Source of the DNA: a virus
Direction: 5' to 3' (one strand)
Virus record (IMG/VR): IMGVR_UViG_3300040801_002948
Span: 1-64,000 of that record
Length of the DNA: 64,000 bases
Shown here: piece by piece, positions 8,257 through 62,400 of the stretch
How the letters are laid out: each line of letters opens with the position of its first letter
Position numbering within the stretch: position 1 is the stretch's first letter
Translations under genes and position numbers: made by a program
Notes under the pieces: model-generated
The model's database searches: none
What the model saw: only the letters and a program-made list of their open reading frames with translations
What the model was told of the DNA's origin: nothing

Positions 8257-8325
8257 CCAAATAATTTGGACGGCAATATAAAGCGCCGTATATTTGAACC
8301 ATCGTTAACAGCAAAACCACACAAC
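8257..8325 (+). promoter_or_regulatory. promoter-leader element, full copy
   Basis: CCAAATAATTTGG at 8257-8269, TATATTTG, AACCATCGTTAACAGCAAAACCACACAAC, ATG at 8326. Confidence 0.7.
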
Positions 8326-9239: not shown

Positions 9240-9256
9240 TTTTGTTTGTTAACGAT
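9240..9256 (+). other. anti-leader site A (reverse complement of the conserved leader core)
   Basis: TTTTGTTTGTTAACGAT compared with the reverse complement of ATCGTTAACAACAAAA: one extra T. Lies between the TAA at 9234-9236 and the terminator at 9262-9303. Confidence 0.6.
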
Positions 9257-9261
9257 TTTCC

Positions 9262-9303
9262 GCGCGCGCCTTGCAGGTTCTCAGCCTATGGCGCGCGCTT
9301 TTT
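9262..9303 (+). terminator. intrinsic terminator
   Basis: GCGCGCGCC / GGCGCGCGC stem followed by TTTTT. Confidence 0.75.
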
Positions 9304-9314
9304 AATTTGCAGCC

Positions 9315-14268: not shown

Positions 14269-14273
14269 GGGCT

Positions 14274-24828: not shown

Positions 24829-24855
24829 AGAAGTGTTGTTCATAGCAAGTTAGGC

Positions 24856-24891
24856 GGCGCAATGCTACTTTTGTGGTGTTGCGCCCTTTTT
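24856..24891 (+). terminator. intrinsic terminator
   Basis: GGCGCAA/TTGCGCC stem followed by CTTTTTC. Confidence 0.55.
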
Positions 24892-24932
24892 CGTATATTG
24901 TTTGTTAGTGCTTGGTGCAAAATCTTAATTCG

Positions 24933-25355
24933 ATGCGTTTTAAAAAGAAGGAACTTGAAGAAGCGGCCCTTGAAGCTATAAAGAAGCACGGGGCTTTAAC
25001 AATAACTGACGTAACGGCCTATTTGCCTTGCAGCCGGGAAACGTTTTATTCCAAGAACTTGCACAAATCTGACGTTATAAAAAGGGCCCTTGAAGACCAG
25101 CGCATAAAGACGAAAGCCAAGCTTCGCAAAAAGTGGCTTGAAGGCCAACAGCCATCAACACAAATTGCCCTTTACAAGCTGATAGGCACACCGGCGGAAG
25201 CTGACCGGCTTAATGGCGTTGTGCGCGAACAGACGGTAAACCACGCGCTTGAAAAGGATTTGCAGTCATGGAAAGACTTGCCGCTGGAAGTCCGGGAAAA
25301 GATTGCTGACCTTCTGGAAGAACACCAAGAACAAGCCACAAATGACAATGAATGA
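24933..25355 (+). CDS. terS: terminase small subunit (putative)
   Basis: 140 aa. HTH-like ALTITDVTAYLPCSRETFYSK. ATGA overlap with the large terminase. Confidence 0.5.
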   Translation: MRFKKKELEEAALEAIKKHGALTITDVTAYLPCSRETFYSKNLHKSDVIKRALEDQRIKTKAKLRKKWLEGQQPSTQIALYKLIGTPAEADRLNGVVREQTVNHALEKDLQSWKDLPLEVREKIADLLEEHQEQATNDNE

Positions 25356-26791
25356 AAACCATTGCAGGCCTGAAGAAGTCCTTGATGGAAGACCGGTTTT
25401 TGCGGTTCTTCACTGAATTTTGGCCGGTCATTGTTGAGGACAAGCTAATAATGAACTGGCATATTGAATTTATCGCTGATGAACTTCAAAAAGTTGGGGA
25501 ATGGGTGATTAATAGGCAACCAAAGGAATACGACCTATTGATAAACGTGCCGCCGGGAAGCTCAAAGTCAACGCTTGCAAGCATTATGTTCCCGGTCTGG
25601 CTTTGGGTCAAAGACCCTTCTTTGCGGATAATTTCAGGAAGTCATTCGTCATCTTTGGCAATGCGCCACGCGGCACGGAGCCGGGACATTATCAGAAGTG
25701 AAAAATTTCAGTTCTATTTTGGCGAACGGTTTGAAATGCGCAAAGACTTTGACAGCAAAGGGTATTACATGAACACCCAAAAAGGCGAACGTCAGGTGAC
25801 TTCCGTGGGTGCAAACATTACCGGTTCACATGCGCATTTACTATTGGTTGATGACCCTATAAACGTCAAGGAAGTCATTAGTGAAACGATTCTTGAAACG
25901 GCTTGCAATTGGGTAGATAAGACCCTTTCAACGCGTGTTGTGGAAAAAAGCCAAGTGCCCACGGTTCAAATTATGCAACGCGCGGCGGGAAAAGACCCTT
26001 CCGGGGAATGGCTAAGGCAGGCAGAAAAGGAAGGGCGGCAAATCAGGCATCTTTGCATACCTTCAGAAGATAAATATAGGGTGAACCCGCCTGAACTTCG
26101 CAAGTATTACCAAAATGGCCTTATGGATGAAAAACGGCTTTCGCGTGAAGTCCTTGACGCTTTTCATGCAAAACTTGGTTCTGATGGCTACAGTGGGCAA
26201 TTTGGGCAAGATATCAAACCGCCGGGCGGCAACATTATCACAGAAGCCATGCTTCCTATTTTGGAATGGTTCAGCCTGCCAGACGCGGCAAAGGGCGTGA
26301 CAGTTAACTTTGTTATTGATAGCAGTGACAAAGAAAAAAGGCACAATGACCCTACAGGGTGCCTTGCTTATATCGCCGTGCAAGGCTATATTTTTATTTT
26401 GGATTACTTCAGCATAAGGGCCCGGTTTTCTCGCCGCTTACAAGCGCTTCAGGCTTTTGTTGAAAAGTACGGAAGCCCAAACAGCCGCGTTTATATAGAG
26501 CCGAAAAGTTCAGGCATTGCCATGTATCAATATTTGTCCGATAACACCAAGCTAAATGCGGAAGAATGGCAAATGTCAGAAGGTGACAAGGTGCGGCGGG
26601 CCCAAGCCATTACGCCTTTTTTAGAGCAAAACCGGGTCTTCCTAATGCGCGGGGCATGGAACCGGGACTTTATAACGGCTTGTACGGGCTTTCCAAAACT
26701 TGCACATGATGAAGAAGTTGATGTTTTGGTAATGGCAGTAACAAACGGCATAGTGCGCGGGGAAGAAAGCTACTATAATTTTTATGACTAA
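25352..26791 (+). CDS. terL: terminase large subunit
   Basis: Walker A-like NVPPGSSKSTLAS, Walker B HLLLVDDP. C-terminal RNaseH-like nuclease acidic motifs (FVIDSSD, HDEEVDVL). Confidence 0.85.
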   Translation: MKTIAGLKKSLMEDRFLRFFTEFWPVIVEDKLIMNWHIEFIADELQKVGEWVINRQPKEYDLLINVPPGSSKSTLASIMFPVWLWVKDPSLRIISGSHSSSLAMRHAARSRDIIRSEKFQFYFGERFEMRKDFDSKGYYMNTQKGERQVTSVGANITGSHAHLLLVDDPINVKEVISETILETACNWVDKTLSTRVVEKSQVPTVQIMQRAAGKDPSGEWLRQAEKEGRQIRHLCIPSEDKYRVNPPELRKYYQNGLMDEKRLSREVLDAFHAKLGSDGYSGQFGQDIKPPGGNIITEAMLPILEWFSLPDAAKGVTVNFVIDSSDKEKRHNDPTGCLAYIAVQGYIFILDYFSIRARFSRRLQALQAFVEKYGSPNSRVYIEPKSSGIAMYQYLSDNTKLNAEEWQMSEGDKVRRAQAITPFLEQNRVFLMRGAWNRDFITACTGFPKLAHDEEVDVLVMAVTNGIVRGEESYYNFYD

Positions 26792-28308: not shown

Positions 28309-28323
28309 ACTTCAATCTTTTTG

Positions 28324-28394
28324 CCAAATAATTTGGCGCTTTCATTTACTTGCCGTATATTTGAACCATCGTTAACAACAAAACCACACAGACA
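28324..28394 (+). promoter_or_regulatory. promoter-leader element, full copy (consensus-like)
   Basis: CCAAATAATTTGG at 28324-28336, N20, TATATTTG at 28356-28363, AACCATCGTTAACAACAAAACCACACAGACA, ATG at 28395. Confidence 0.75.
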
Positions 28395-32314: not shown

Positions 32315-32335
32315 ACGGTTTGTTTTAGGTTGTTA

Positions 32336-32369
32336 GGCCCGCACAGAAGCGCTGTGTGGGCCTTTTTTT
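32336..32369 (+). terminator. intrinsic terminator
   Basis: GGCCCGCACAG / CTGTGTGGGCC stem (one mismatch) followed by TTTTTTT. Confidence 0.7.
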
Positions 32370-32382
32370 GTATATTGGTGGC

Positions 32383-36404: not shown

Positions 36405-36472
36405 CCAAATAATTTGGTTTATAAAGTTGCTTGCCTTATCTTTGAAACATCGTTAACACAAACCACGCAAAC
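36405..36472 (+). promoter_or_regulatory. promoter-leader element, full copy
   Basis: CCAAATAATTTGG, TATCTTTG, AAACATCGTTAACACAAACCACGCAAAC, ATG at 36473. Confidence 0.7.
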
Positions 36473-36892
36473 ATGAAAGACAGACAGTTTATTCAAAGCT
36501 TGATAGACCAATTGCATTTTAACCAGTCAATAAGCTTTGGTACAGAAGAAGACCTTCTGACCGTAACGCACATGCGCGTTAGCGCCTATGAAAGCGCTTT
36601 CTTTTTCACCTTAAATGGGCAAGCGCATGACAAGTATAAAACCGCGTTAGGCGCGGGCCTTGGGTGCAATGGCTTTCTTGAAAAAGGTTTCCGGCTTGAA
36701 CTTGAGCCGGAAGAAGCTGTCATGGCCCTTAGAATGGCTTTAGAAAGGCATGATTCAGAACTTGTTTTGGAGCTTCTGAACCCTGACCGGCGCGAAAGCT
36801 TGCCGGATTGGGAAGAAGCGCCTGACTACATTTTTGATGACTGGCAGGGCTATGAAAGCAAGGCATTGAAATTTCTTGAACGGTTCCAGTAA
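36473..36892 (+). CDS. hypothetical protein (139 aa)
   Basis: Cassette ORF. Confidence 0.6.
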   Translation: MKDRQFIQSLIDQLHFNQSISFGTEEDLLTVTHMRVSAYESAFFFTLNGQAHDKYKTALGAGLGCNGFLEKGFRLELEPEEAVMALRMALERHDSELVLELLNPDRRESLPDWEEAPDYIFDDWQGYESKALKFLERFQ

Positions 36893-36903
36893 AAATTGCA
36901 ATA

Positions 36904-37344
36904 ATGATTGATTATAAAACAATAAAGGGTGACATAAAACTTTGGCTTTGCACCGGGAAAGGCGGCGCAAAGAAGCGCATAAACGCAAAGCGGCTGAAGA
37001 CACCAAAAGCGGCCGCTTTGTATGCAGAAAAGACAGGGCTTGAACGGCCTATAGTAGTGACCGGCCTTTTAACGCACGCGGAAACAAAGCCTGTCTTCCG
37101 GCTTGAACGGCCGGGCTTTGAACAGTTCTTGCTTGACCAAACAATAAAGGTAGCCGCCAAGCACCTTGAAGCATACCGGGCGCGAATGGAAGGCGATGAA
37201 AAAGCAAAGGCACAAATGGAAGACCTGTTTTTATGCTTTTGCGCGCTGAATAAGGAAGCCGCAAAAGTTTCAACTGAGCTTGCCGGGGCTGTTTACCGGG
37301 CTTGGTCTGACGGCGCTTTTTTGCCGGTGAAGATTATAGTTTAA
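36904..37344 (+). CDS. hypothetical protein (146 aa)
   Basis: Second gene of the last cassette operon. Confidence 0.55.
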   Translation: MIDYKTIKGDIKLWLCTGKGGAKKRINAKRLKTPKAAALYAEKTGLERPIVVTGLLTHAETKPVFRLERPGFEQFLLDQTIKVAAKHLEAYRARMEGDEKAKAQMEDLFLCFCALNKEAAKVSTELAGAVYRAWSDGAFLPVKIIV

Positions 37345-37349
37345 AGATA

Positions 37350-37366
37350 TTTTTGTTGTAACGATG
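37350..37366 (+). other. anti-leader site B (reverse complement of the conserved leader core)
   Basis: TTTTTGTTGTAACGATG compared with the reverse complement of CATCGTTAACAACAAAA: one base missing. Lies between the TAA at 37342-37344 and the terminator at 37374-37409. Confidence 0.6.
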
Positions 37367-37373
37367 TTTTACA

Positions 37374-37409
37374 GCCGCGTGCCTTTTGCTTGGTGCGCGG
37401 CTTTTTTTT
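37374..37409 (+). terminator. intrinsic terminator
   Basis: GCCGCG...CGCGGC stem followed by TTTTTTTT. Confidence 0.7.
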
Positions 37410-37429
37410 ATCTTGCACAAAAGTCTATT

Positions 37430-38077
37430 ATGAAAAACCCAAAATTTAAGGCGCTTGTGGAAGCGTCTATGGATTGCATTGAAGACGCGCAAGCCAAGGG
37501 CGAAGGAAAGATTATTGTGAACTTTCTTTCGCTTATGTCAGAGCGTGTGTACGGTGAGCCGGGCAACCTTGCGAAAGCGCTTAATCTTCAGCCTTCAATT
37601 TTGTCAGCGCCAAAAGTGCCGCGTGTGAAGTCCGGGGCAAGTCAATTGTCAAAGCTTGGGCAAGATCAGCGCAAAAATTGTGCAACTTGCCCTGATGCAA
37701 AGGAAATTGAAAAGGCCTTGCCCGGCATCAGCACAAGCCGGAAGCAGAAGACCGGGGCAGATAGAGCCGCACAGGGCGACTTTCAAAAGGAAGCTGAACA
37801 GATAGCCGGTGAACCCGACAAAGACCCGCCACAGGACGCGCCTGACCTTACAGCGGCAAAAAAAGAAGAAGGCTTGCCTTCGCACCCTTCAGAGTGCCGC
37901 ACCCTTGAGCAATTGAAAAAATGGTATGGCTTTGGTACTGCCCGGCCTGAATCAGATATTGCAGAAGCAATAAAAGCTGACCTTGATTTGTTACAGGTTG
38001 ACTACAGCGGCCGCCTTTCAAAGGCTGACAGCTTGGTAAAGGAATTCTTCAGTAAAGTGATTCAGGGCAATGATTAA
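37430..38077 (+). CDS. hypothetical protein (215 aa)
   Basis: First ATG after the terminator. The ORF-track start at 37364 lies inside the hairpin. Confidence 0.5.
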   Translation: MKNPKFKALVEASMDCIEDAQAKGEGKIIVNFLSLMSERVYGEPGNLAKALNLQPSILSAPKVPRVKSGASQLSKLGQDQRKNCATCPDAKEIEKALPGISTSRKQKTGADRAAQGDFQKEAEQIAGEPDKDPPQDAPDLTAAKKEEGLPSHPSECRTLEQLKKWYGFGTARPESDIAEAIKADLDLLQVDYSGRLSKADSLVKEFFSKVIQGND

Positions 38078-38945: not shown

Positions 38946-39055
38946 TGGATTCGCCGTTGTTAGGTTCAGCAACAGGTGAAGACCGGCTTTCGGCAATGCT
39001 TAACCTAGATTTTGAATTGACAGTTGATTACCTAACTAGGAAAATGATTAAATGA
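38942..39055 (+). CDS. tiny ORF (37 aa), doubtful
   Basis: ATGA overlaps at both ends link the 38070 and 39052 ORFs. Confidence 0.25.
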   Translation: MMDSPLLGSATGEDRLSAMLNLDFELTVDYLTRKMIK

Positions 39056-40740
39056 TGAACAAGAAAAAACAGGCTTTGCGCCTAATTAGGCAACAGCAGC
39101 TTCAAGAAAGGCGCGAATTGCTGCTTGCTGAACGCGAATGGGATATAATGTTGCCGGAAGAACCGGTGACGGTATTCAACGGGCCCGTTGCAAACGCGCG
39201 GAATTGGGGCTTTGACTACCTGACAAAAGGCCTTTCAAAGTTTGAAATGAAAAGCCCGGTCACAATAAATGTTGCTGACACGGGCGCGCTGTCTGCGAAT
39301 AAGTATCTTCAGCACCTTGATACGGAGCTTGCCAAGGACTACACAGATGGCCGTGACGGGCTTTTGGATGGCCATGACCACTTCAGCCATTGCCAAGGTA
39401 TTATTGGCGCTACAAAAGAAGGTATTGGCGTATTATGGCACCCTTTGCTTCGCCAACATTTCAGTCAGTTCTTGCAATTCGGAAGCCGCGTACTTCTGAA
39501 CGGCGGTGCAGGTTCTTATGAATGGGTTGAACGGTACGCAAACGCAATGGCCGACTTGTACACCAAAAACCCGCGCATAAAAGACAAGCCTTTCATTCTG
39601 TCTTGGTCATTCGGTGGCAGTGGTAGCCATCAAGGCGTTGCAGACGCTGTTAACTACCTTGAAGACTTGGGCATTTTTGTTGTTTCTTCAGCGGGCAATA
39701 ATGGCGTTTCAGTGGGCTTTCCGGCGCGCCTTGCGCCTGTCTTTGCTTCAGCGGCCTTTGACAGCGGCGAAAACCGGGCAAGCTTCAGCGGGCGCGGGCA
39801 AGAACTTTCTTTTTGCGCGCCGGGCGTTCAAATCCTGTCTTGCGGTGCTGACCAAGATGAACTGTTGTACATGAACGGCACTTCAATGTCAGGGCCCGGG
39901 AACGCGGCAATGCTTGCTTTGCTGTTGGCGCAAAATCCGGATTTGACACCAAAAGAAGTCCGCGCTTTGTTGGAAGCGGGCGACCTTACCAAAGACCTTG
40001 GAAACGCGGGATTCGATGACTTGTATGGTTGGGGCGCAACTACTGCGGGCACCGTTCTTGATGAACCCGCTGACGTTCCAGACAATCCAGATGAACCGGG
40101 CGACGGCCCCGGCGATGAACCCGGAAACCCGGAAGCACCGATTGACAAAAAGCCGTTTAAAGAGCGTCAGCACGCTTTTGAACTGGAAGTTGAAGCGCTT
40201 ATTGTTTACAGCCGGATGAATCAGCGGGCGCGGGCGGAAATGGGCCTTTCTGATGAACCGTTTGAATTTATGCTTGATTCGCCGGAAGGCGCAAACATAC
40301 TCAGCAGGCAAGCGGCGGAATTTGCCAGACTGGACGCTATTGAAATGAAAGTTACTTCAAAGCGTGCCGGGGAAGCCATTTCGGCCTACTTGCTTGAATA
40401 TGCTGAAGGGTATTATCAAAACCGTGGCTTTGGCCTTCCTTACCTTGTGGATATCAAGTATATTCTTGGCGTGGCCGGGTATTTCCTTTTGTTGGACTTG
40501 TTCAAGAACAAGCGGGACTTGTTCAATGAGATCACAAACGTCCGCTTCCTTGGTTGGGAAGGTGAAAGCTATTCAGGCATAATGCACCGGGCCCCGGTAT
40601 GGGAACGCGGCACAACGCCATACCTTAGCACCATTGAAGAATTTACCACGGCATTTGAACAGCAATTTGGCTTGCGTTTGCCGGTTCCAAATGGCGGCGC
40701 ATATGTTGACGGCGGGGAACGAATTATTTCTAAGCGATGA
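39052..40740 (+). CDS. subtilisin-like serine protease (peptidase S8) with Pro/Asp/Glu-rich linker and ~190-aa C-terminal domain
   Basis: Catalytic triad contexts: INVADTGA (Asp), HFSHCQGIIGA (His), MNGTSMSGPGNAAMLALLLA (Ser). Linker: DEPADVPDNPDEPGDGPGDEPGNPEAP. Confidence 0.85.
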   Translation: MMNKKKQALRLIRQQQLQERRELLLAEREWDIMLPEEPVTVFNGPVANARNWGFDYLTKGLSKFEMKSPVTINVADTGALSANKYLQHLDTELAKDYTDGRDGLLDGHDHFSHCQGIIGATKEGIGVLWHPLLRQHFSQFLQFGSRVLLNGGAGSYEWVERYANAMADLYTKNPRIKDKPFILSWSFGGSGSHQGVADAVNYLEDLGIFVVSSAGNNGVSVGFPARLAPVFASAAFDSGENRASFSGRGQELSFCAPGVQILSCGADQDELLYMNGTSMSGPGNAAMLALLLAQNPDLTPKEVRALLEAGDLTKDLGNAGFDDLYGWGATTAGTVLDEPADVPDNPDEPGDGPGDEPGNPEAPIDKKPFKERQHAFELEVEALIVYSRMNQRARAEMGLSDEPFEFMLDSPEGANILSRQAAEFARLDAIEMKVTSKRAGEAISAYLLEYAEGYYQNRGFGLPYLVDIKYILGVAGYFLLLDLFKNKRDLFNEITNVRFLGWEGESYSGIMHRAPVWERGTTPYLSTIEEFTTAFEQQFGLRLPVPNGGAYVDGGERIISKR

Positions 40741-41375
40741 CTGAATTTATAGTACCTGAAGGGCGGCACAAAAGCAGGCCCTTCAGGTTTAGCCCTTCTT
40801 TTTGTGAGTACAAGCCGGAAAAGGCCATAATGGTCAACCAAGGCGAAAGCTCAAAGTATATTGTCAGGGATTCGGCCGGCAATATGCACGTTGACCAATG
40901 GGACTGGCTTAAAGTGCTGGGAAGGCAATTTCATGTAAACCCGCACAAAAATACTTACATGCTTGCCACGCGGTTCAACCCTATTGAAGATGTGTTTGAA
41001 TACACTTCTTACTTTCACGTTAATGGGCGCGTTTATGTTGGCACCTTGTTTCAAAATCCGGGCATCAGTTTTGATTTGCTGAAGAAGGCAAAGAAAGACT
41101 TGTCAAAGGGCAAAATTGAAACCTTTGCAGCAAACCAATATAAAGAGCTTGTAATGTTCCGCCGGCCTATAGCGGTCAGAAAAGCAGGTCAGCCGCTGTT
41201 TATTGATGAAATTACAGAACATTCACTTTGCCGGTATGGCTTCCGGTACAAAGAAGAAGAAAGGCTGACTGTCAAGCCAATAAGCCGGAATTGGTTTAGC
41301 CTTAAAATATACCCTTGGTTTGGGGGCACTTCAAAAGCGCCTTCAGACTGGAAAGTTGTTATTCATAATTGGTAA
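40737..41375 (+). CDS. hypothetical protein (212 aa)
   Basis: ATGA overlap with the protease gene. Confidence 0.55.
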   Translation: MTEFIVPEGRHKSRPFRFSPSFCEYKPEKAIMVNQGESSKYIVRDSAGNMHVDQWDWLKVLGRQFHVNPHKNTYMLATRFNPIEDVFEYTSYFHVNGRVYVGTLFQNPGISFDLLKKAKKDLSKGKIETFAANQYKELVMFRRPIAVRKAGQPLFIDEITEHSLCRYGFRYKEEERLTVKPISRNWFSLKIYPWFGGTSKAPSDWKVVIHNW

Positions 41376-41385
41376 GGCAGATTTT

Positions 41386-41424
41386 GCGCCGGGCCCCAAT
41401 GACTGGAAGCCCGGCGCTTTTTTT
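41386..41424 (+). terminator. intrinsic terminator at a convergent gene junction
   Basis: GCGCCGGGC / GCCCGGCGC 9-bp stem followed by TTTTTTT. Confidence 0.75.
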
Positions 41425-41782
41425 ACATGCCGTCAATAAGGTCTTCAATTTCGTCCATAACGCCGGAAAAAGATGGGTTAATGATTGATGTTAAAATCTG
41501 AAGGGCGGCTTCTGCCTTTTCCCGGTCATTGTCCATGACTAGCAAATTAGCCGTCTGAAAAGCCTTTTGCCCGGTCAATATCTTTGAACCCGGCCCGGCC
41601 CTTAATGTGCCGTTAACGTCAACAAAAACGCTTTCATTGTCATCAGTCTGGACAATTGACACAAGCGCTTTAACTTCTTTTCCAGGATAAACCCAAGCGC
41701 CGGCCTTGACCATAGCTTTTGCCAAGTCTTTGTTTTTGGCCCAACTGCCCTGTTGTGTTCGTACTACGAAAATAATTTCCAT
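41423..41782 (-). CDS. hypothetical protein (119 aa)
   Basis: Third gene of a minus-strand operon. Confidence 0.6.
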   Translation of the reverse strand: MEIIFVVRTQQGSWAKNKDLAKAMVKAGAWVYPGKEVKALVSIVQTDDNESVFVDVNGTLRAGPGSKILTGQKAFQTANLLVMDNDREKAEAALQILTSIINPSFSGVMDEIEDLIDGM

Positions 41783-41808
41783 ATCTGCATGGTTTAAATG
41801 TTAAAAAA

Positions 41809-42183
41809 TTAATTTATTGGTTTTATTAAGAACTCTGCAAGCAACTTATCTTTCAAATCGTATGCCTTGAAGAACAAAATTCCGTTCTTTTCTGTATGCA
41901 GGCACAGCCGCACAGTTCGCGGGAAGTCAGGGTTGAAAGCGCGCTGATTTTCCGTGACGTTATAGAACTTGCGCCGGGCGGCACCTGCAAAAGGGCTGTC
42001 AGCGTCAAAACTTTCTTCGCCGTGGTCTTCACCATAAATAAATTCAATACGGGGCGTGCTTATTATTTGGCAATTTTGCGGCATTACGTCAGAAAGCGTT
42101 CCTGTTTCTGATATTACCAAATACCCGGCACCGGTCTTCCTTATGACCTTGTGCCGGGCGTTGTTTATTATCGCTACTAGCAT
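41809..42183 (-). CDS. hypothetical protein (124 aa)
   Basis: Minus strand. Overlaps the upstream gene by 7 nt. Confidence 0.6.
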   Translation of the reverse strand: MLVAIINNARHKVIRKTGAGYLVISETGTLSDVMPQNCQIISTPRIEFIYGEDHGEESFDADSPFAGAARRKFYNVTENQRAFNPDFPRTVRLCLHTEKNGILFFKAYDLKDKLLAEFLIKPIN

Positions 42184-42446
42184 TTTTCAATGTTTACTTC
42201 TTCAATTTCTTCTTCAGTGTTCAGCCAATAGCGGTCATTATTTGCCGCGCATTCGCGCATTTCGGCAAGCGTTGGCCGCGCGAACGTATTATAGGAACGC
42301 TTGAGAATAACCGCTTTGTAGCGGGTGAAATACGTTTCCGGAATTTGGCTGATTGAATCAAACCACTTTGTTTGCGTGGTGGTTTGGTCAATGTTTTCAA
42401 AGCGGATGGCGAAAACTGTTTTTCTGATTGGTGTGCGGTCTGTCAT
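42177..42446 (-). CDS. hypothetical protein (89 aa)
   Basis: ATG directly follows a minus-strand copy of the leader. Confidence 0.6.
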   Translation of the reverse strand: MTDRTPIRKTVFAIRFENIDQTTTQTKWFDSISQIPETYFTRYKAVILKRSYNTFARPTLAEMRECAANNDRYWLNTEEEIEEVNIEKC

Positions 42447-42517
42447 TGTCTGTGTGGTTTTGTTGTTAACGATGGTTCAAAGATAAGACAACCAAGCGAG
42501 AATACCAAATTATTTGG
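42447..42517 (-). promoter_or_regulatory. promoter-leader element, full copy on the minus strand
   Basis: Minus-strand reading: CCAAATAATTTGG, TATCTTTG, AACCATCGTTAACAACAAAACCACACAGACA, ATG (42446). Confidence 0.7.
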
Positions 42518-42525
42518 AATAACAT

Positions 42526-42729
42526 TTAGTTATTGAATAATTGCTTGACAACTGCCTTGGCTGTTTTGCCCGCGCCGGTGCTTTCTTCCCAAGCTTTAAA
42601 GGTCATTCCGGCTTCCTTCATTTCATAGGCTTCTTTAAACAGCTCAATAGTTGATTCAGACAGCAAAAAGGTTTTAGTTGCTTCGCTTGCTGCCTTAAAG
42701 CTTTTTGTGGACTTGATGAAATTTTTCAT
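42526..42729 (-). CDS. hypothetical protein (67 aa)
   Basis: Start at the ATG after the leader. The ORF-track extension to 42834 is a translation of the element. Confidence 0.6.
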   Translation of the reverse strand: MKNFIKSTKSFKAASEATKTFLLSESTIELFKEAYEMKEAGMTFKAWEESTGAGKTAKAVVKQLFNN

Positions 42730-42798
42730 GGTGTGTGGTTTTGTTGCTAACGATGGTTCAAAGATAGGGCAAGCAAACGTAATTACCAAATTATTTGG
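42730..42798 (-). promoter_or_regulatory. promoter-leader element, full copy on the minus strand
   Basis: Minus-strand reading: CCAAATAATTTGG, TATCTTTG, AACCATCGTTAGCAACAAAACCACACACC, ATG (42729). Confidence 0.7.
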
Positions 42799-42821
42799 CA
42801 AAAAGATTGCAATTATTTTTG
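42794..42821 (+). promoter_or_regulatory. candidate divergent + strand promoter sharing the palindrome
   Basis: TTTG at 42794-42797 (right arm of the same palindrome), N16, TATTTTTG at 42814-42821 (matches TAnnTTTG). Lies upstream of the tail block that starts at 42903. The spacer is shorter than in the other copies. Confidence 0.35.
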
Positions 42822-42902
42822 CATTGCCGCGCATGGCGTTGATTTTGCAAGTGTTTCAAAGCCTTGTGGGTTTATGTTATTTTGGGCCAAAAGGGCCTAA
42901 AT

Positions 42903-44091: not shown

Positions 44092-47000
44092 ATGGCAAAG
44101 GTAATTGCATACGAATTAAGGATAAACGGAATAGACGTTTCCATTAAAAATGGCAATCAGCTAAAGGAAGCAATAAAGCTTTTGAACCGTGAACTGAACC
44201 GCACAGAAGACGCGGCCAAATTCCGTGAAATCCAAAAAGACCTTGGTGCTTTAAAGCAGATACAAAAAGAAGTTAGGGACGAAACCCGAAAGCAAGGGCG
44301 CGCATTTGAAGAAGCTGGAAAAAAAGGCACAGGCAGCTACAGAGAATTACAGCTTCAAATGTCAAGGCTAAAGAAGGAATTCAAAGAGCTTTCAGCAGCA
44401 GAAAGGCAGGGCGATGTAGGGCAGCGGCTTCAGAAAAACATTGCCGGGCTATCAGGGCAGCTAAAGCGCATTGACAAAGACCTTGGCGATAATTTTAGAA
44501 ATGTTGGTAACTATCAGTCAGCGTTGGGCGGCGCTTTCGGTTCACTTAAAGCGGGATTGCTTGCAGCCGGTATTTCTATAGGGCTTCAGCAAATCAATGA
44601 AGCGCTTGTGGCATCTATCCGGCTTTTTGCTGACTTTACTAATCAAATTGCAACGCTTCAGGCAATCAGTGGCGCTTCCGGCGATGAAATTGAATTTCTG
44701 GAAGGGCGGGCGCGGGCCCTTGGTGAAACAACACAATTCACAGCTTCGCAAGTGGCACAGCTTCAGACTAACTTTGCGCGTGTGGGCTTTAACACAAGCG
44801 AAATTGACGCGGCAACAGAATCAACGCTTGACTTGGCGCTTGCCACCGGTGAAGACCTTGCTGAAAGCGCTGATGTGGTAGCTTCAACGCTTGGCGGCTA
44901 CCAACTAGCAGCGCGGGAAACCAAGCGTGTCAATGATGTTCTTGCGGCTTCCTTCAATAGTACGGCCCTTCAGCTTGAAACGTTTTCTGAATCGTCAAAG
45001 CTTGTGGCACCAATTGCCGCTACGCTTGGCATTACAATAGAGCAAAGCACGGCATCAATAGGCGCGCTGGCTGACGCTGGCTTGCGTGGTACTGTTTCAG
45101 GTACAGCGCTAAGAAGGGTGTTCACTGAACTTGGCACGGAAGGCAGCAAGCTTTCAGAACGGCTTGGCCTTGTGGTCAACGATTCAGAAAGCTTTGAACA
45201 GGCTTTAACAAAGCTTGGGGAAGAAACAATTACTGTTTCAGAAGCTACAGAATTGGTGGGCAGGAATGCGGCTTCAGCCTTTGTTGTCTTTGCCGCGTCA
45301 GCGCCAAAAATTCAAGAACTTACAGCAGCTTTTAACGATGCTTCAGAAGCGGTTGACCAATACGGCAACAAAGTAGGCGCGGCGGCGGCGGCTTCAGCCA
45401 TTATTGAAGACACGCTGACCGGTGACATTAATAAATTCCAGTCAGCGCTTGAAGGCTTTCAGCTTTTCTTTGTAGACTTATTTGACGATCAGCTAAGAAG
45501 CGCTATTCAGGGGACCACAAGCCTTTTCAGGCCTTTACAGACAGCCACAGCAGCACTGTTTGAATTATTTGCGCCCTTGGTTCAAGAAATACGGCGCTTG
45601 GGGCGGAACATTGGGATAGTAGGCGGGGAAGTGGGGCTGTTTGAAGGCCTTGCCCGGTTTTTGGTGGGCACGCTTGGCTTATTGGTCAATGTGGTCACAA
45701 GTGTAATACGCGGGTATAATGTGCTGTCTGAAGCGATTCAGGAAACGGCGGCTTCCGGTGAAGGCTTTATCAGCGGCTTTCTTCAAGGTGTTATTGATGC
45801 TTTTGGCGTTATCATTGACCTTGCATCAAAGGTGCCCGGCTTCCTTAGTGGCGTGGTAACGTCTTTTGCTGACTTCCGGGACAGCTTTTTGACCGGCGAT
45901 GACTTTAACCTTGCAGAAAGCTTTGAACGTGGCAGGAAAGCCGCTGAAGACTTTTTTGCAGCGGGCAAGGAAAAGGAACAAGACATTTTGCAGCCGCTTC
46001 AGCTTACGGAAGAACAGCTTTTAAAGCTTGACGAACTTTACCGGCGGCTTTCAGAAACAACAGGGCTTTCATTAAACCAAATACGCGGGATTGGTGAAGA
46101 AGTAGTAAAGAACGCTGAAACCTATGAAGGGGCCCTTGGCGATATTCAGACCCGCGTTTTGAAGCTTTTCACCGATCAACAAACAGCAGCGGCGGCCCGT
46201 GGTGGTGACGGGGCCGGCGGTGACAGCGGCGGCGGCGCGGCGGCGGGGCCTGCTGGCAGTATTAAAGCCCTTCAGGAACAGGTTGCACAGCTAAAGCAGG
46301 AACTTGACGTGCAAACCACGGAAAGCGGCATTCAGCGCGTAATTGAACAGCTTATTGAAAAGCAGTCAGAACTTGAAGACCTTCAGCGGACGGTTGAAAC
46401 CATCCGGAATGTGGCTGAAGAAGCGGTTGTTGATTTTGATGGGGCCAATGTTGGGGCTGATGTTCAAATTGAAGATGTAGGCGGGGAATCAGATCAAGAA
46501 TACATTCAGCGGCAGCAAGAAATAATTGACGCGCGGGCGCAAGCAGCAATTCAGGCGCTTCAATCGGAAGAACTATCTTTCCAAGAATATGAAAACAGAA
46601 AGACAGAAATTTTGCGCGAAGCAGAAATGGAACGGCTTGAACTTCAGCTTGCCTTTGCGCAGGAAGGCACGGCGGAATATCTGGCTATTAAGAACAAAAT
46701 GTATGAGCTTGAAACACAGCGCGCAAGGGAAGCAAAGCAGAACCAAGAAGAAGTTGAAGAACAGTTTTATGAAGAAATAAAACAGCTTGGCTTTCAGTTT
46801 TTGCAAGACACTTTAAACAATCAATTTCAAGGCCAATTAAATGCGATTGAAGAACGGAAGAACAAGCAAATTGAAGCGCTTGAAGAAGAACAGCGGCGGC
46901 GCTTAGAGCTTGCCGAAGAAGGGAGCCTTGAGGAAGAAAGGCTTTTAAGGGAATTTGAACAGCAGCGGCAAGAAATTGAACTTGAAGCGGCAAGGAAAAG

Positions 47001-47640
47001 CAAAGAGATTCAAGTCAAGCAGGCAATTGCCAACACGGCGCTTGCCATTGGTAATGCGCTGGCAACAGTAAAACCATTTGCGCCCAATGCGATTGCAGCG
47101 GCCGCAATTGCAGCCGTTCAGGGCGCTATTCAGGTGGCAACAATACAAAGCCAGACTTTTGCAAAGGGTGGGCGCATAAAGGGCCCGGCGCACAGTCAAG
47201 GCGGTGTTCCTGCTGTTGTCCGCTCAACAGGCCAACGTGTTGAGCTTGAAGGCGAAGAAGGCGTAATAAATAAACGTTCAATGCGGTCTTCAAAAGTTGT
47301 CACTGTCACCGGGCGGCCGGCTGAGATTGCAAGCGCAATTAATGCAATGGACAATAACGGTGTGCCCTTTTCGGGCATCCCCAAAGCCCGGCTTCGCTAT
47401 AAATTCCAGACGGGCGGCGTAATACCTTCCGCCACACAACTGAACCTTGCTTCAGGCGGGCAAAATGCACAAGGTTCTTCTTTTGTTGTATCTTTAGAAC
47501 CTGAAGCGCTTGAAGGGCTAAGGATGGCCGTATATGACGGCAGCCGGGGCGGAGCCAAAGACGGCAGCCGTGAAGGCATCAGCGATAGTGCAAAATCTAA
47601 AGCGCGGCAAGACCTGTTGAATAAAAGGACAAATTTATAA
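44092..47640 (+). CDS. tail tape measure protein
   Basis: 1182 aa, mostly helical/coiled-coil. Hydrophobic central segments, a Gly-rich patch (GGDGAGGDSGGGAAAG) and a long E/Q/R-rich coiled-coil. Typical size and position. Confidence 0.8.
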   Translation: MAKVIAYELRINGIDVSIKNGNQLKEAIKLLNRELNRTEDAAKFREIQKDLGALKQIQKEVRDETRKQGRAFEEAGKKGTGSYRELQLQMSRLKKEFKELSAAERQGDVGQRLQKNIAGLSGQLKRIDKDLGDNFRNVGNYQSALGGAFGSLKAGLLAAGISIGLQQINEALVASIRLFADFTNQIATLQAISGASGDEIEFLEGRARALGETTQFTASQVAQLQTNFARVGFNTSEIDAATESTLDLALATGEDLAESADVVASTLGGYQLAARETKRVNDVLAASFNSTALQLETFSESSKLVAPIAATLGITIEQSTASIGALADAGLRGTVSGTALRRVFTELGTEGSKLSERLGLVVNDSESFEQALTKLGEETITVSEATELVGRNAASAFVVFAASAPKIQELTAAFNDASEAVDQYGNKVGAAAAASAIIEDTLTGDINKFQSALEGFQLFFVDLFDDQLRSAIQGTTSLFRPLQTATAALFELFAPLVQEIRRLGRNIGIVGGEVGLFEGLARFLVGTLGLLVNVVTSVIRGYNVLSEAIQETAASGEGFISGFLQGVIDAFGVIIDLASKVPGFLSGVVTSFADFRDSFLTGDDFNLAESFERGRKAAEDFFAAGKEKEQDILQPLQLTEEQLLKLDELYRRLSETTGLSLNQIRGIGEEVVKNAETYEGALGDIQTRVLKLFTDQQTAAAARGGDGAGGDSGGGAAAGPAGSIKALQEQVAQLKQELDVQTTESGIQRVIEQLIEKQSELEDLQRTVETIRNVAEEAVVDFDGANVGADVQIEDVGGESDQEYIQRQQEIIDARAQAAIQALQSEELSFQEYENRKTEILREAEMERLELQLAFAQEGTAEYLAIKNKMYELETQRAREAKQNQEEVEEQFYEEIKQLGFQFLQDTLNNQFQGQLNAIEERKNKQIEALEEEQRRRLELAEEGSLEEERLLREFEQQRQEIELEAARKSKEIQVKQAIANTALAIGNALATVKPFAPNAIAAAAIAAVQGAIQVATIQSQTFAKGGRIKGPAHSQGGVPAVVRSTGQRVELEGEEGVINKRSMRSSKVVTVTGRPAEIASAINAMDNNGVPFSGIPKARLRYKFQTGGVIPSATQLNLASGGQNAQGSSFVVSLEPEALEGLRMAVYDGSRGGAKDGSREGISDSAKSKARQDLLNKRTNL

Positions 47641-51430: not shown

Positions 51431-51582
51431 TGTTTAAGTTTTGGTTATTATTTGTTTACACTCTGAAGGCTTGGCGCTAACGCGTCAGGCCTTTTTGCAT
51501 TGGCAAACAATGCAGAACAGGCGTAAAGCCTTTCTTTGCCGGGCCTTGGTTTTTATTTTTGAGCGAAACAAAACCAATTCAA

Positions 51583-52665
51583 ATGCCTAAAGGCACGCTA
51601 AGGATTCGCACAGTTAGAAATATTGGTTGGGGCTTTAATGATGCAGACCTTGAAGAACAGCTTTCAGGCTTTTCAGGAAACAGAATTGAAGTGCCAATTA
51701 ACAGCTATGGCGGTGACGTTTTTAGTGGCCTTGCAGCTTACAACCTTTTGCGCGGGCGTTCTGAGAAAATCAATACCAAGATTCTTGGCATCGCCGCAAG
51801 TATGGGCACAATTTTAAGCGCTTCAGGTTCTTCCGGGATGGTGGAAATGCCTGAAAATGGCTATTACATGATTCACAACCCGAAAGGCGGGAATTACAGT
51901 GAATCGGAAAAGATGGCAAGCTTTGCTGACCTTTTGCGCCAAATGGAATTGGATATGGCTAATATTTACCGAAAGCGCACACAAAGCGCGGGGCAAGATA
52001 TCAGCCTTGAAACAATCCAAGAATGGATGCGGAAGGAAAAGTGGTTCAACGCTGAAGCCGCTTTGAAGTATGGTTTTGTGGATAAATTGACCGATGGCGT
52101 TAAGCTTTCGGCTCATGTGAATATGGATGAACTAAAGGGGCTTTATTCTAACGTCCCTGATACTCTTTTAAGCAAAAATTATTATCAGATGGGATTTAAA
52201 GACCAGTTCAAAGCCCTTGCAGATGGATTCACTAAGCTTGTGAACTCAATGGAAGAAGAAGGCACAGGAGGCACAGAAGGCGCAAAGCCTGATGCTGAAG
52301 GGCAAGCCCCGGAAAATACCGGCGGGCAAGATTCAGGCAAGCCCGAAGGCAAGCCCGAAAGTAAAGCAGAAGGCGAAAAGCCTAACGCTGAAGCGCCTGA
52401 AGTAAGCGCGAAAATTGAAAAGCTGGAAGCAAGTGTTTCAGACATGAAAAGCGCGCTTGAAACAGTAACCGAAACCTTCAAGGCCGCACAAGCCACAATG
52501 GCTTCAATGGCGAAGACTATTGAAGACCAAAAAAAGGCCAATGCTGCTTTAAAGCAGATGGTCGTTGGCAAGTCTGAAGGCGGGAAAAACACAGCGCCGG
52601 CCGCCGCTGAAGCGATGGCGGAAAAAACCTTCCGTGAAGTGACGAATGAAGCTGAATTTGGCTAA
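51583..52665 (+). CDS. ClpP-like (S14) prohead protease fused to scaffold-like C-terminal region
   Basis: INSYGGDVFSGLAAYN, GIAASMGTIL and YMIHNP are ClpP Ser/His contexts. The C-terminal 150 aa are E/K/A-rich and coiled-coil. Confidence 0.75.
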   Translation: MPKGTLRIRTVRNIGWGFNDADLEEQLSGFSGNRIEVPINSYGGDVFSGLAAYNLLRGRSEKINTKILGIAASMGTILSASGSSGMVEMPENGYYMIHNPKGGNYSESEKMASFADLLRQMELDMANIYRKRTQSAGQDISLETIQEWMRKEKWFNAEAALKYGFVDKLTDGVKLSAHVNMDELKGLYSNVPDTLLSKNYYQMGFKDQFKALADGFTKLVNSMEEEGTGGTEGAKPDAEGQAPENTGGQDSGKPEGKPESKAEGEKPNAEAPEVSAKIEKLEASVSDMKSALETVTETFKAAQATMASMAKTIEDQKKANAALKQMVVGKSEGGKNTAPAAAEAMAEKTFREVTNEAEFG

Positions 52666-56177: not shown

Positions 56178-56901
56178 CAAAGAAGAAGTGGTGCGGCTTA
56201 CGGAGCTTGAGACAGGTTTTTTTGACCGGTTGAGCATTCGCAATATAAAGCTTGTGGAAGCTCAACTGAAAACCACTTGCATTGGCCCTGACCTTTATGG
56301 GGCGCTTGTGGCGGCACTGACGGACTTTTCCGGCGCTTTGCAATACTCAAGCGGCACAACTTACACAATAGGCGAAACGGTTTTTTACAATGGCGTTTAC
56401 AGGGAAGCCACAAAAAGCACCACGCTTGAACCAAGCCATGACTTTGCTTGGAAAGATGCTGAAAAGTTCAATGACGCGGCATTGAATGAACTGTGGAATG
56501 AAAAGGGTCTTGGTGAAGTTTTTGCTTATGCAGTGCTGGCAGATTCATTGCCATTAATCAAAACAAAGACCCGGAACGCGGGCCTTGTGAATAACTTTTC
56601 ATCAGGTGAACAGCGCGCGGTTCAGTATGACATCAGGGACGCTGAAGATTACATTATCAATACAGCGGGCAGGTGGATAGACGTATTTGTTGCCAACTAC
56701 AAAACCGCCGGTTTGCCTTACAGCGTGCCTTGTGTGGACAACTATGAACAATGCACTTGTAATTCAGCGTGCGCAAGCGGTGAAGCAACAAATTTGGAGC
56801 GAATTTTTTATGGCGGCTTTGACTACATAGGGCAAACAAATACCTTGTGCCGGGCCTGCAAAAGAAAAATGTATAATTCGGGGCATTATGGCGTTTATTG
56901 A
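56164..56901 (+). CDS. hypothetical structural-module protein (245 aa)
   Basis: Overlapping start. Cys-rich C-terminus. Confidence 0.5.
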   Translation: MTIINKEEVVRLTELETGFFDRLSIRNIKLVEAQLKTTCIGPDLYGALVAALTDFSGALQYSSGTTYTIGETVFYNGVYREATKSTTLEPSHDFAWKDAEKFNDAALNELWNEKGLGEVFAYAVLADSLPLIKTKTRNAGLVNNFSSGEQRAVQYDIRDAEDYIINTAGRWIDVFVANYKTAGLPYSVPCVDNYEQCTCNSACASGEATNLERIFYGGFDYIGQTNTLCRACKRKMYNSGHYGVY

Positions 56902-59041: not shown

Positions 59042-59464
59042 ATGAGATTTTTACCGGGAACGGCAATTTTTATTGAAGTAAAAAACCTTGGTTTTCAACG
59101 TCTTGGCGTTGGCGAAACAGCGCTTATTTGCGGGTTTAAGTCAGGTTTTTGTTCAAAGAACAATCCTTCAGTCAGATTTTTTGCAGAACGGAAGACAGAA
59201 GGCGACTATTTCATTTACCCTGAATGGAAAATTGGGCTAAGGCGAATAAAAGGCTTGGCCGCTGTTTGCCAAAAAGGCGACACGGTTTATTTGTTTGCTG
59301 AATACAAGAAAGGGGAAATGGCCGTTTTTGTCCAAAAGAAAGGGCAAGAACGAACACCGGGCTTCGTTTCGCAAATGCCCACAGGCTTCATTTCGCGGCT
59401 TGTGCGCCCTTTTTATGCAATTAAGACATCAATACAAAGGCTGACATGGAAAAAGTTAAAATAG
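59042..59464 (+). CDS. hypothetical protein (140 aa)
   Basis: The internal ATG just after the upstream stop was chosen. Confidence 0.4.
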   Translation: MRFLPGTAIFIEVKNLGFQRLGVGETALICGFKSGFCSKNNPSVRFFAERKTEGDYFIYPEWKIGLRRIKGLAAVCQKGDTVYLFAEYKKGEMAVFVQKKGQERTPGFVSQMPTGFISRLVRPFYAIKTSIQRLTWKKLK

Positions 59465-62400
59465 CAGCGTTATTTGCGCTTGTGCTTTGTGGGTTTTCTT
59501 CTTTAGCACAAACAGACCCGGTGACAAGGGTGAAACCGTACAGAATTGAAGGTAGCGCCGCGCCGGGGCAAGTTATTGTTGCAGACGCTGAAAATGATGG
59601 CCGGTGGAATGACAGCTTGGTTTATTGGCAAGGCTTTTTGACAATTAACGGCGACACGGCAATAACTGAATGGCAAATTGTTGATGAATTTCAAATTGCT
59701 TCAGACATTTTGACAATTAGTTTGTCAAATGATGGGCAAGCGCCGCTTTCGGTTGACTTGTCGGCTTACCTTGATAATACAGACACGCAAGATTTATCTT
59801 TTGCGGGCACTACCCTTTCCCTGACCGATGGGGGAAGCGTTGACCTTTCCAGCTTGCAAGACGGCACCGGGACTGATGACCAAACGCTTTCTTTAGCTGG
59901 CAATACTCTTTCTATTGAAGACGGGAACAGCGTTGACCTTTCCGGCATTAGTAGTCAAGACAACCAAACAGTTGATACATTCAGTTTGTCCGGAACAGTC
60001 CTGACCTTTGCATTGGAGCGGGACAACGAAAGCCCTTACACAGTTGACCTTTCGGGATTACAGGACGGCACCGGAACAGACGACCAAAATTTAACCCTTG
60101 CAGGCAATACGCTTTCTATTGAATCGGGCAATAGTGTAAGCCTTGCGGCCTACCTTGATAATACAGACACGCAAGATTTATCTTTTGCAGGCACTACCCT
60201 TTCTTTGACTGACGGCGGAAGCGTTGACCTTTCGAGCCTGCAAGACGGAACCGGTACAGACGATCAGCAAGTAAACACATTTAGCCTGTCAGGCACTGAT
60301 TTGACGCTTGAAATTGAAAGCGATGGTCAAGCACCGCATATTGTTGATTTGTCCAGCTTACAAGACGGCACCGGAACTGATAGCCAAACCCTTTCTTTTG
60401 CTATTGCTTCCGGCGATTTGTCTATATCTTCAGGCAATACAGTAAACATTCCAGCGATGGCCGGCGCAACGTCATCAGCGGACGGTGAACAAGGCTTTGT
60501 TCCTAAACCTACGGCAGGTGAAGAAAATCTTTTCTTGCGCGGCGATGGCACTTGGGGCAATCCTACCACTGGCGGCGATAATTGGGGAAGCCAAGTTGCG
60601 CAAACATCAGGCTTTATTGGCGGCGATGGCACGGGCCCTAACGCTATCAGCCTGATTCAAAACGGCGCGTCAAATGGACAAGGTTTAATTTACGATTCAG
60701 GCGCGGGCGAATGGACAGCGCGCGCCCAACTTGACAGCCAAAGTTTGAGCTTCGCAGGCACCACGCTTTCCCTGACAAATGGCGGAAGCGTTGACCTTTC
60801 CATTTTGCAGGACGGCACCGGCACAGATGACCAACAAATTCAGCTATTTAGTTTGTCTGGCACTACTTTAGAAATAGACCTTGAAGGTGACGCTTCAAGC
60901 CCGCATACAGTCAATCTTTCGAGCCTTCAGGACGGCACCGGCACAGACGATCAGAAAGTAAACACATTTAGCCTGTCAGGTACTGACTTGACCCTTGAGA
61001 TTGAAGGCGATGGCCAAGCGCCACACGTTGTTGACCTTTCGAGCCTTCAGGACGGCACCGGCACTGATGACCAAAACTTAACCCTTGCAAGCAATACGCT
61101 TTCTATTGAATCAGGAAACAGTGTGAGCCTTGCAGCTTACCTTGACAACACAGACACACAAGACTTATCTTTGGCGGGCACTACCCTTTCCTTGACTAAT
61201 GGCGGCAGCGTTGACCTTTCCGGGTATCTTGATAACACAGATAGGCAAACCGTTGACACTTTCAGTCTATCCGGAACAATTTTGACCCTTACCTTAGAAA
61301 ATGACAACGAAACGCCTTATTCAGTCAACCTTTCGAGCCTTCAGGACGGCACAGGGACGGATAATCAAGCATTAAGTTACGGCGGCGGTGGTTCATTGTC
61401 TATTAGCAATGGAAACAGTGTTGACCTTTCAGACTTGCTTGACAACACGGACACGCAAGATTTATCTTTAGCGGGCACTACCCTTTCCCTGACCAATGGC
61501 GGAAGCGTTGACCTTTCCGGAATAGTTGGTGACGATGATTGGCGGTTTACTGGCACTGAAAATCATTCAAGCCATGCTTTCAGAATAGGCCAAACAAGCA
61601 TTGGCACGTCTTCAAGCGGGTATGGTTTGCGCGTTGACACTAACTTTCAGTTTAATGTTTACGGAAACGCCAATACATTTGACTGGCAAGACGGCACCGG
61701 AAGAAGTGTTGACAAAGGTTTAATGTGGGAAGGCGCGGGCGGTTCGGACGGTTCGGGCCCAAAGGCTGGCACAAACAACAGCTTTATTTTGTCAACAGAT
61801 GACGCGGCAATTGGCGCAAATGATGTTTTAGGCAGTATTTTGTTTTCAGGTGAAGCGCCGGGCCTTGGAGCGGTCAGGCGGTCAGCAATGATAAAAGCTT
61901 ACGCTTCCGCCGGTTGGACATCTTTAAACAATGCCACTGATTTAAGCTTTTACGCAGTGCCTTCAGGAAGCACTACCCTATCAAGAATAATGAGCTTAAA
62001 AGCCAATGAACGCATTGAATTGCCTTCTTATTCAGGCTTTTCAGATGGCATTCCAGACTATTTTATTGGCATGAGCAACGCGGAAGAATTGACGCGGCAC
62101 AGCATCGCTGGAACGGCTTCTGATGGGAAGGTGCTAAAGCTTGATTCAGGCGGTCTTTCTTGGCAAGATGACAATGAAGGCGCGGCGGCCGTATCTGTTG
62201 ATTTGAACTTACTTAGGGACACGATAGAAGTCACCGGGCACGGCTTTACGGCAAGCCAAACACCAATACCGTTTTTTGTTGACAGGTCATCAGGCAGCGT
62301 TGGCAATATAGGTGCAGCAGTCAACAGTTCAGATGAAAAAACGCACAGCGGTTTTATTGTTGAAGTGCTAAGTGTTGACAGCCTAGTTGTTGCCACCGGC

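Follow-up and report, generated by a model that had tools for sequence, protein, structure and literature searches.

Why should a phage carry, between the stop codon and the terminator of one of its own early operons, a nearly complete inverted copy of the leader with which its early transcripts are predicted to begin? The DNA around position 37,350 of the window raises this question, the window being the whole 64-kb stretch analysed here. The stretch covers the greater part of a 67.4-kb contig in a microbial-mat metagenome, and the phage is tailed and uncultured. A sequence-only reading had described the element, site B (37350..37366, + strand, TTTTTGTTGTAACGATG), as a reverse-complement leader with one base missing, placed right after the TAA of the ORF at 36904-37344 and ahead of a terminator, at the end of a cassette array. 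The letters bear out each part of that description. The reverse complement of site B, CATCGTTACAACAAAAA, equals the 17-base early-leader box CATCGTTAACAACAAAA minus one A; the copy runs from +17 to -1 of the leader, and the deleted base lies inside GTTAAC. Five nucleotides (AGATA) separate site B from the stop codon, and six separate it from a hairpin at 37373-37402 (11 bp, 8 of them G-C) that is followed by T8. This terminator (37373..37409, + strand) has the G+C-rich hairpin, the U tract, and the location downstream of a stop codon that mark an intrinsic terminator, and the local fold has a predicted energy of -23.9 kcal/mol (z = -4.2). Site B stands at the end of the early cassette array, which occupies 27.6-37.3 kb.

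The phage itself is remote from anything deposited. A megablast comparison with deposited phage records returned nothing similar, a search of IMG/VR with the large terminase (TerL) found no relative, a search of the same collection with the exact early leader gave no match, an Rfam scan of the whole window detected no family, and three metatranscriptomes from the same sample contained no contig of this phage. The primase/helicase (3399-5582), large terminase (25352-26791), tape-measure protein (44092-47640), and prohead protease (51583-52665) can be recognized among many small ORFs without a family match. The nearest terminases are 58-60% identical, and remoter ones lie in Pontibacter and Hymenobacter genomes, which points to a host in the Bacteroidota. 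A search for the leader pattern in 185,579 genomes gave 18 matches, about the random number, a few of them in Flavobacteriaceae 5′ UTRs, and no host was identified in this way. Several other features of the window deserve a mention. The 1491-aa ORF at 59446-63921, at the end of the structural region, holds many diverged tandem repeats with units of ~90-300 nt and the motif ...GGSVDLS..., and its product is probably a fibre or adhesin-like tail protein. A 562-aa protein with a subtilase (Peptidase_S8) domain is encoded at 39052-40740, between the early array and the tail genes, and is kept in two of the relatives introduced below (R2 and R3, the latter also L224); a homologue search with it returned generic S8 peptidases only. 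Two intervals, 14269-14847 (579 nt) and 56178-56887 (710 nt), contain no ATG-initiated ORF of at least 50 aa in a simple ORF map; they could be non-coding features or harbor genes that begin with another start codon.

What the inverted copy could mean depends on what the leader box is. One early promoter module occurs in 20 copies between 1845 and 42790 of the window (for example at 28314-28394), 18 on the + strand and two, at 42473 and 42754, on the - strand. Each copy consists of CCAAATAATTTGG, a spacer of 19 or 20 nt, TA(T/C)(A/C)TTTG, 4 nt, ATCGTTAACA(A/G)CAAAA, CCACACA.., and an ATG, with ATCGTTAACA identical in 19 of the 20; the consensus of the box can also be written AUCGUUAACA(A/G)CAAAA. 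Bacteroidota promoters combine a -33 TTTG with a -7 TAnnTTTG ~19-21 nt apart, and transcription in Flavobacterium johnsoniae starts 5 nt after the final G of the -7 box, which puts this G at -5 (PMC6847099). All 20 copies (CCAAATAATTTGG-N19/20-TA(T/C)(A/C)TTTG) fit this sigma-A consensus, and by the F. johnsoniae rule the predicted +1 is the A of ATCG, so that the phage-specific and nearly invariant box would form +1..+17 of every early mRNA. The -33 palindrome and the -7 box are generic: single copies stand at no fewer than 140 unrelated metagenome and IMG/VR loci, often before tRNA genes and also before ordinary genes, and a search of these collections with the generic promoter pattern as a route to relatives returned only unrelated Bacteroidota loci. 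Across the 20 promoters, the +1..+17 box is better conserved than the -7 and -33 elements. Substitutions within its paired part are A to G only (+11 in five copies, +8 in one). The early leaders are A/C-rich and lack a Shine-Dalgarno sequence, as is usual for the Bacteroidota. The two - strand copies drive four small minus-strand genes at 41376-42834, which stop at a shared hairpin (41376-41422), convergent with the + strand gene 40737-41375.

The operon that ends in site B is itself driven by this module. Its promoter and leader (36405..36472, + strand) comprise the -33 palindrome CCAAATAATTTGG at 36405-36417, the -7 box TATCTTTG at 36437-36444, and the leader ATCGTTAACACAAACCACGCAAAC, which reaches to the ATG at 36473; the -7 box rule predicts +1 at A36449 (PMC6847099). 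Two + strand cistrons follow, 36473..36892 (139 aa) and 36904..37344 (146 aa, TAA at 37342-37344), neither with a family match. Past the terminator, a -7-like box, TTATCTTG (37408..37415, + strand), is fused to the T run and lies ahead of the gene 37430..38077 (+ strand, 215 aa), for which it would serve as a promoter element. That gene is conserved in R2 and in two further relatives, L148 and L149, the last two too different to be informative; a homologue search with its protein returned only itself. A public gene call (37364-38077, 237 aa) starts at an ATG within the inverted box and reads through the terminator; it is probably too long, because the R2 homologue begins directly after its own terminator. 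A minus-strand sigma-70-like match across the site (GTTACA-N18-TATAAT, 37362-37333) was set aside because the phage uses Bacteroidota-type promoters. Read and contig data over site B contained no variant strain.

The same arrangement is found once more. Operon A is also bicistronic and has a type-1 early promoter and leader at 8258..8325 (+ strand; predicted +1 at A8301). Its inverted leader box, site A (9240..9257, + strand, TTTTGTTTGTTAACGATT), has one extra T, and its part TTGTTAACGAT is perfectly complementary to +1..+11. Site A lies 3-4 nt past the TAA of the ORF at 8646-9236 and is followed by an intrinsic terminator (9262..9303, + strand) made of a hairpin at 9262-9298 and T5, after which come TTAATTTG and the ATG at 9315. 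The fold at site A (-26.8 kcal/mol, z = -3.3) likewise has the features of an intrinsic terminator. The earlier claims that A and B share a layout of stop codon, seed, and terminator as well as a junction (TTAAAGAT, TTTT), and that each closes a bicistronic operon driven by the element (promoters 8301 and 36449), are thus correct.

Could two such copies arise by chance? We took as the chance model 300 first-order Markov sequences of 64 kb with the window's dinucleotide transition frequencies and scored both strands. A 17-mer match is expected 0.003 times per 64 kb at an edit distance of at most 1 and 0.13 times at an edit distance of at most 2. Smith-Waterman scores are 28 for site A and 29 for site B, and every other non-promoter match scores 21 or less, so the scan for comparable matches at random positions comes back empty. 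The inverted copies are real, and chance does not account for them. No orphan copy of the box other than A and B exists in the 64-kb window; these two lie 3-5 nt past a stop codon and 4-6 nt before a hairpin, and none was found in direct orientation or inside genes. Terminators inside the array, where another early promoter comes next, have no inverted box. The sequence-only reading had argued from two independent occurrences against chance. Chance is indeed removed; as to independence, the two sites have a left junction in common: 8 nt to the left of the box agree (shuffle p = 0.03), within them TTAAAGAT including the stop codon, which in operon B belongs to TTAAAGATA (37341..37349, + strand). 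To the right, TTTT follows GAT(G) in site B and GAT in site A.

Because the left junction is common to both, sites A and B may stem from one event. It would not be a segmental duplication, which is ruled out by the unrelated proteins that flank them. Homology of the two hairpins is not supported either, since the similarity between the hairpins, and between the parts downstream of them, does not exceed what two terminators of this genome show in general. The sequences allow a single origin, after which a short piece spread, as well as two separate origins under a shared constraint. A decayed minus-strand promoter is ruled out by the lack of any -7/-33 remnant adjoining either box. A transposon or MITE with terminal inverted repeats is rejected, although leader and anti-leader do flank 0.9-kb units: the ORFs match no transposase family, the flanks show no duplication, and no copies were found elsewhere.

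The shared junction also bears on the possibility that the sites do nothing at all. An inverted box fragment may have been captured once by a terminator, possibly been copied to a second place, and now be decaying as a non-functional by-product of recombination, an explanation that we consider rather unlikely and still worth serious weight. Phage cassette arrays with repeated promoters, such as the T4-type PeSL cassettes, are hot spots of shuffling, and the 20 near-identical promoter modules of this phage could recombine illegitimately or by template switching. Sites A and B each have an indel that is absent from all 20 working leaders, and the common left junction would allow one origin. The match of site B further continues 1-4 nt upstream of the predicted +1, as for a DNA copy of the promoter at 31114 or 36449; such an extension is expected of a DNA copy and not of selection on RNA pairing. 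The earlier reading had noticed this extension and used it in favor of the leader match. Its GATGTTTT does agree with the AAACATCG promoter variant, which 31114 and 36449 carry as GAAACATCG. As an argument it is weak, because the bases lie upstream of the predicted +1 and because site A shares the TTTT without being complementary there to its own operon's promoter. Against debris from recombination, however, both orphans agree in orientation, in their limits (+1..+17), and in lying between a stop codon and a terminator; neither copy is flanked by a trace of the -7 box or of CCACACA, no orphan stands in direct orientation or within a gene, and the A and B hairpins are not detectably homologous, which speaks against copying of a whole module.

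Orientation and limits gain a meaning when the sites are considered as RNA. Since the box is +1..+17 of the early promoters, RNA from A or B would be the complement of the 5′-terminal 16-17 nt in almost every early mRNA. This complementarity covers the conserved box only and in site A stops exactly at the predicted +1. If transcription starts at the A of ATCG, site A RNA can form a perfect duplex with +1..+11 and, beyond a bulge of one base, pair with +12..+16. Site B RNA would pair first with +1..+7 and then, past an A of the leader that bulges out, with +9..+17. With 17 of the 20 leaders, either site is predicted to form a duplex of -14 to -15.4 kcal/mol, compared with -2.6 to -10.8 kcal/mol for the 5′ regions of 15 other genes used as controls. 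Three leaders pair more weakly: copies 1887 and 15399 (-13.1 and -10.6 kcal/mol) and copy 36449 (-11.9 and -9.9 kcal/mol). The last is the leader of operon B itself, ATCGTTAACACAAACC, which is thus the worst partner of site B (-9.9 vs -15 kcal/mol) if +1 is the A of ATCG; the weakness would not apply if transcription started a few bases farther upstream. Thermodynamic folds of the whole transcripts (965 and 1001 nt), in which ribosomes and kinetics are ignored, nevertheless give a leader/anti-leader pairing probability of 0.8-1.0 per base in both operons, with a helix of 11 bp, a bulge, and 5 bp in operon A and of 7-11 bp, a bulge, and further pairs in operon B. Neither anti-leader is tied up in local folding. 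The A to G changes at +8 and +11 face a U in both sites and are therefore tolerated as G.U pairs; the pattern represents about two events (roughly p = 0.15) and is not significant.

We therefore lean, at somewhat less than an even chance, toward sites A and B acting as 3′-UTR anti-leaders, in cis and possibly also in trans as a 3′-UTR-derived antisense RNA. Each ~1-kb transcript could close on itself through a 16-17-bp helix of its 5′ and 3′ ends with one bulge, and a stable 3′ fragment consisting of anti-leader and terminator hairpin could pair in trans with the 5′ ends of other early mRNAs. Initiation in the Bacteroidota relies on an unstructured A-rich leader and no Shine-Dalgarno sequence. 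Pairing of the leader would leave only ~8 free nt before the AUG. With the box 3-5 nt past the stop codon, a terminating ribosome would cover it, and pairing would hinge on translation of the second cistron. The outcome could be repression or stabilisation. Such a role accounts for the orientation of the sites, their placement in the transcript, their exact limits, their tolerance of single-base indels, and their energetics. Both orphans are RNA-complementary in orientation and lie inside a transcribed 3′ UTR, and the single-base indel in each is a change that a bulge tolerates and a DNA operator usually does not, which favors RNA. Against it count that the leader of operon B is the poorest partner of site B, that there are only two sites and these have a common left junction, and that no significant inverted copy was found in the examined parts of three relatives.

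The surroundings of the two sites bring in two further explanations. Several places in the genome have a terminator, hairpin plus T run, fused to the -7-like TAnnTT(T)G, and an ATG follows after 5-50 nt. These type-2 junctions lie at 9299-9314, 24887-24932, 32363-32382, 37402-37429, and 51550-51582, and equivalents exist in R2 (L145/L146). The -7-like boxes at sites A and B are TTTTTAATTTG at 9299 and TTTTTTTTATCTTG at 37402, 5-14 nt before the next ATG. Further junctions of this type precede the gene before the terminase (24933), 32383, and the prohead protease (51583), and those before 9315 and 32383 are near-leaderless. The genes behind them (the terminase operon, the prohead protease, and gene 37430) are conserved and probably later genes, and sites A and B thus probably sit where transcription from early promoters meets genes of another, later promoter type. 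Weaker G/U-rich GTTGTT tracts occur in the interval between stop codon and terminator of two further type-2 junctions, at 24829-24855 and 32315-32335, partly complementary to the AACAAC of the leader; the tract at 32315 has a Smith-Waterman p of ~0.04.

This border position would also fit a box that is bound as DNA. A regulator of phage or host origin could bind the +1..+17 box as its operator and so silence the early promoters, and through the inverted copies it could act on the non-early genes downstream; p4 of phi29 plays such a double part, as a repressor of early and an activator of late promoters. In keeping with a specific trans-acting partner, conservation is higher in the box than in the -7 and -33 elements, and the relatives carry boxes of their own at this position. 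A double-stranded site is orientation-independent, both sites mark borders to genes without an early promoter, and the distance from the T complementing +1 to the final G of TTAATTTG or TTATCTTG is 53 or 50 bp. Still, we find this improbable. The indels fall at different positions of the box, one of them inside GTTAAC, and would shift any protein contacts relative to one another; apart from GTTAAC the box lacks dyad symmetry; the type-2 junctions at 24887, 32363, and 51550 lack the box; no regulator was found, the operon proteins matching no family; and the shared RNA-complementary orientation and position upstream of a terminator would be coincidence. Alternatively, a G/U-rich tract could precede type-2 terminators for a compositional reason such as termination efficiency or a processing site. 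The GTTGTT tracts before the terminators at 24.83 and 32.32 kb are what such a tendency would produce, and the common AU-rich junction could be an endonuclease site. Yet the resemblance of A and B extends over the full 17-nt box, ATCGTTAAC included, a 16/17 match that exceeds a compositional tract by far, and the type-2 junctions of the relatives are not G/U-rich, which makes a compositional origin most improbable.

Relatives were found through TerL and the tape-measure protein and then by walking along IMGVR_UViG_3300012855_000001. R1 is a Logan contig (L141; 21 kb examined), R2 is the IMG/VR record just named (L142/L144-L147; 51 of 65 kb examined), and R3 is L224 (21 kb examined). All three retain the cassette array and the host-type promoter, and in each the +1 box is genome-specific: right after the -7 element stands CCAGACAACAAC in R1, ATTGTCAGAGAGATACAAC in R2, and CATCGGAAGCGGGAAGCGCTTC, with its own 5′ hairpin, in R3. 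The -33/-7 spacers are variable among the relatives. That the box is kept inside each genome, differs from one genome to another, and lies beside a variable spacer argues for a specific partner, and the boxes of the relatives look like the result of concerted evolution or of such a genome-specific partner. No significant inverted copy of the own box was found in the examined parts of R1, R2, or R3. At the spot orthologous to site B, R2 and R3 have a stop codon and, after ~25 nt, a terminator with its T run and a -7-like box, followed downstream in R2 by a homologue of gene 37430 and in R3 by an unmatched ORF upstream of the gene-38070 homologue. In that spot R2 offers only UCUCUCU against AGAGAGA (p 0.06-0.15) and R3 offers nothing (p ~0.5). 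Conservation of the seed or its co-variation with the target, as is asked of a 3′-UTR-derived RNA, was not seen in R1, R2, or R3, with TerL 58-60% identical. The missing counterparts fit a recombination by-product. They weaken the case for function and do not refute it, because the relatives are distant. The function proposed by the sequence-only reading is supported in part, by orientation, position, limits, and thermodynamics, and it finds no echo in a significant inverted box in the examined parts of the relatives.

Several known systems bear on the anti-leader proposal. Leader-trailer helices are formed in rRNA operons, which also have antitermination complexes tethered by boxA (PMC10250234, PMC2724277). 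The phage resembles them in that complementary sequences flank a ~1-kb transcribed unit, and differs in that its units encode proteins. The leader also contains UUAACAA, the core of the E. coli rrn boxA ugcucuuuaacaa (PMC2724277), a likeness of 7 nt that was noticed post hoc and against an E. coli reference, and it resembles the Bacteroidota tRNA-Lys leader CATCGCTTAACAGCAAAA found with the same promoter type at four metagenome loci (L073, L080, L129, L130), which is one base from the phage leader variant CATCGTTAACAGCAAAA. By analogy, the box could be a boxA-like tether of early 5′ ends to the elongating polymerase in an antitermination or processivity complex like that of rRNA and tRNA operons, and the inverted copy an "anti-box" that, once transcribed ahead of the terminators between early and later genes, pairs with the tethered leader, strips the complex, and re-arms termination, an idea that we regard as a long shot. 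The leader-trailer helix would then be cut, and the released 3′ fragments would titrate other early leaders. If true, this would be an RNA-only device that insulates and shuts off early transcription in a phylum without Shine-Dalgarno-based initiation.

For the anti-leaders as such, the closest precedents are the 5′/3′-UTR pairings of icaR in Staphylococcus aureus (PMC3868564) and of hbs in Bacillus subtilis, the latter a 14-bp long-range helix (PMC5737220). The phage helix of 16-17 bp with a bulge is of comparable length to that of hbs, and the predicted outcome would be similar, namely, blocked initiation and an RNase III substrate as for icaR or altered RNase access as for hbs. Unlike in either precedent, the phage target is the 5′-terminal 17 nt and not the Shine-Dalgarno region, and the 3′ UTR is very short (~30 nt from stop codon to terminator). 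The target is, moreover, common to ~20 transcripts, which makes action in trans possible. In trans, the resemblance is to 3′-UTR-derived sRNAs of enterobacteria such as CpxQ and SroC, the seed of which lies just upstream of the intrinsic terminator of the mRNA itself. The phage has the same order of stop codon, seed, and terminator, a single-stranded seed beside a stable hairpin with a U tail, and an AU-rich stretch at the stop codon that could be a cleavage site. Its seed, however, aims at the phage's own early leaders and not at host mRNAs, and it is not conserved in the relatives. To our knowledge, the Bacteroidota have no Hfq.

Two further comparisons concern the form of the transcript and of the array. 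In the fold-back inhibition of hok mRNA (fbi/tac), the 3′ end pairs with the 5′ end. As in hok, the extreme 5′ end of the phage RNA would pair with a 3′-terminal element and the full-length mRNA could be stable or translationally inert, whereas the phage has no recognisable toxin-antitoxin context and no sequence relation to hok. The array of small early ORFs, with a near-identical early promoter before and a stem-loop terminator after each, is like the PeSL cassettes of T4-type phages, with the difference that its promoters are of the Bacteroidota -33/-7 type. PeSLs have not, as far as we know, been described with inverted leader copies. Even as relics, the two sites would document the inverted debris that repeats of a promoter module can leave behind in a cassette array. 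If leader and anti-leader do pair, a single sequence of 17 nt would link ~20 early transcripts to two 3′-UTR antisense elements and would give the phage a compact, purely RNA-based handle on early expression, be it for self-limitation, mRNA stability, or the early-to-late switch. A phage case would then join the few proven bacterial 5′/3′-UTR interactions, and it would come from the Bacteroidota, where phage gene regulation is almost unstudied. An antisense function is plausible, and should the sites be functional, they would represent a variant of known 5′/3′-UTR or 3′-UTR-antisense regulation in this unstudied group of phages and hosts.
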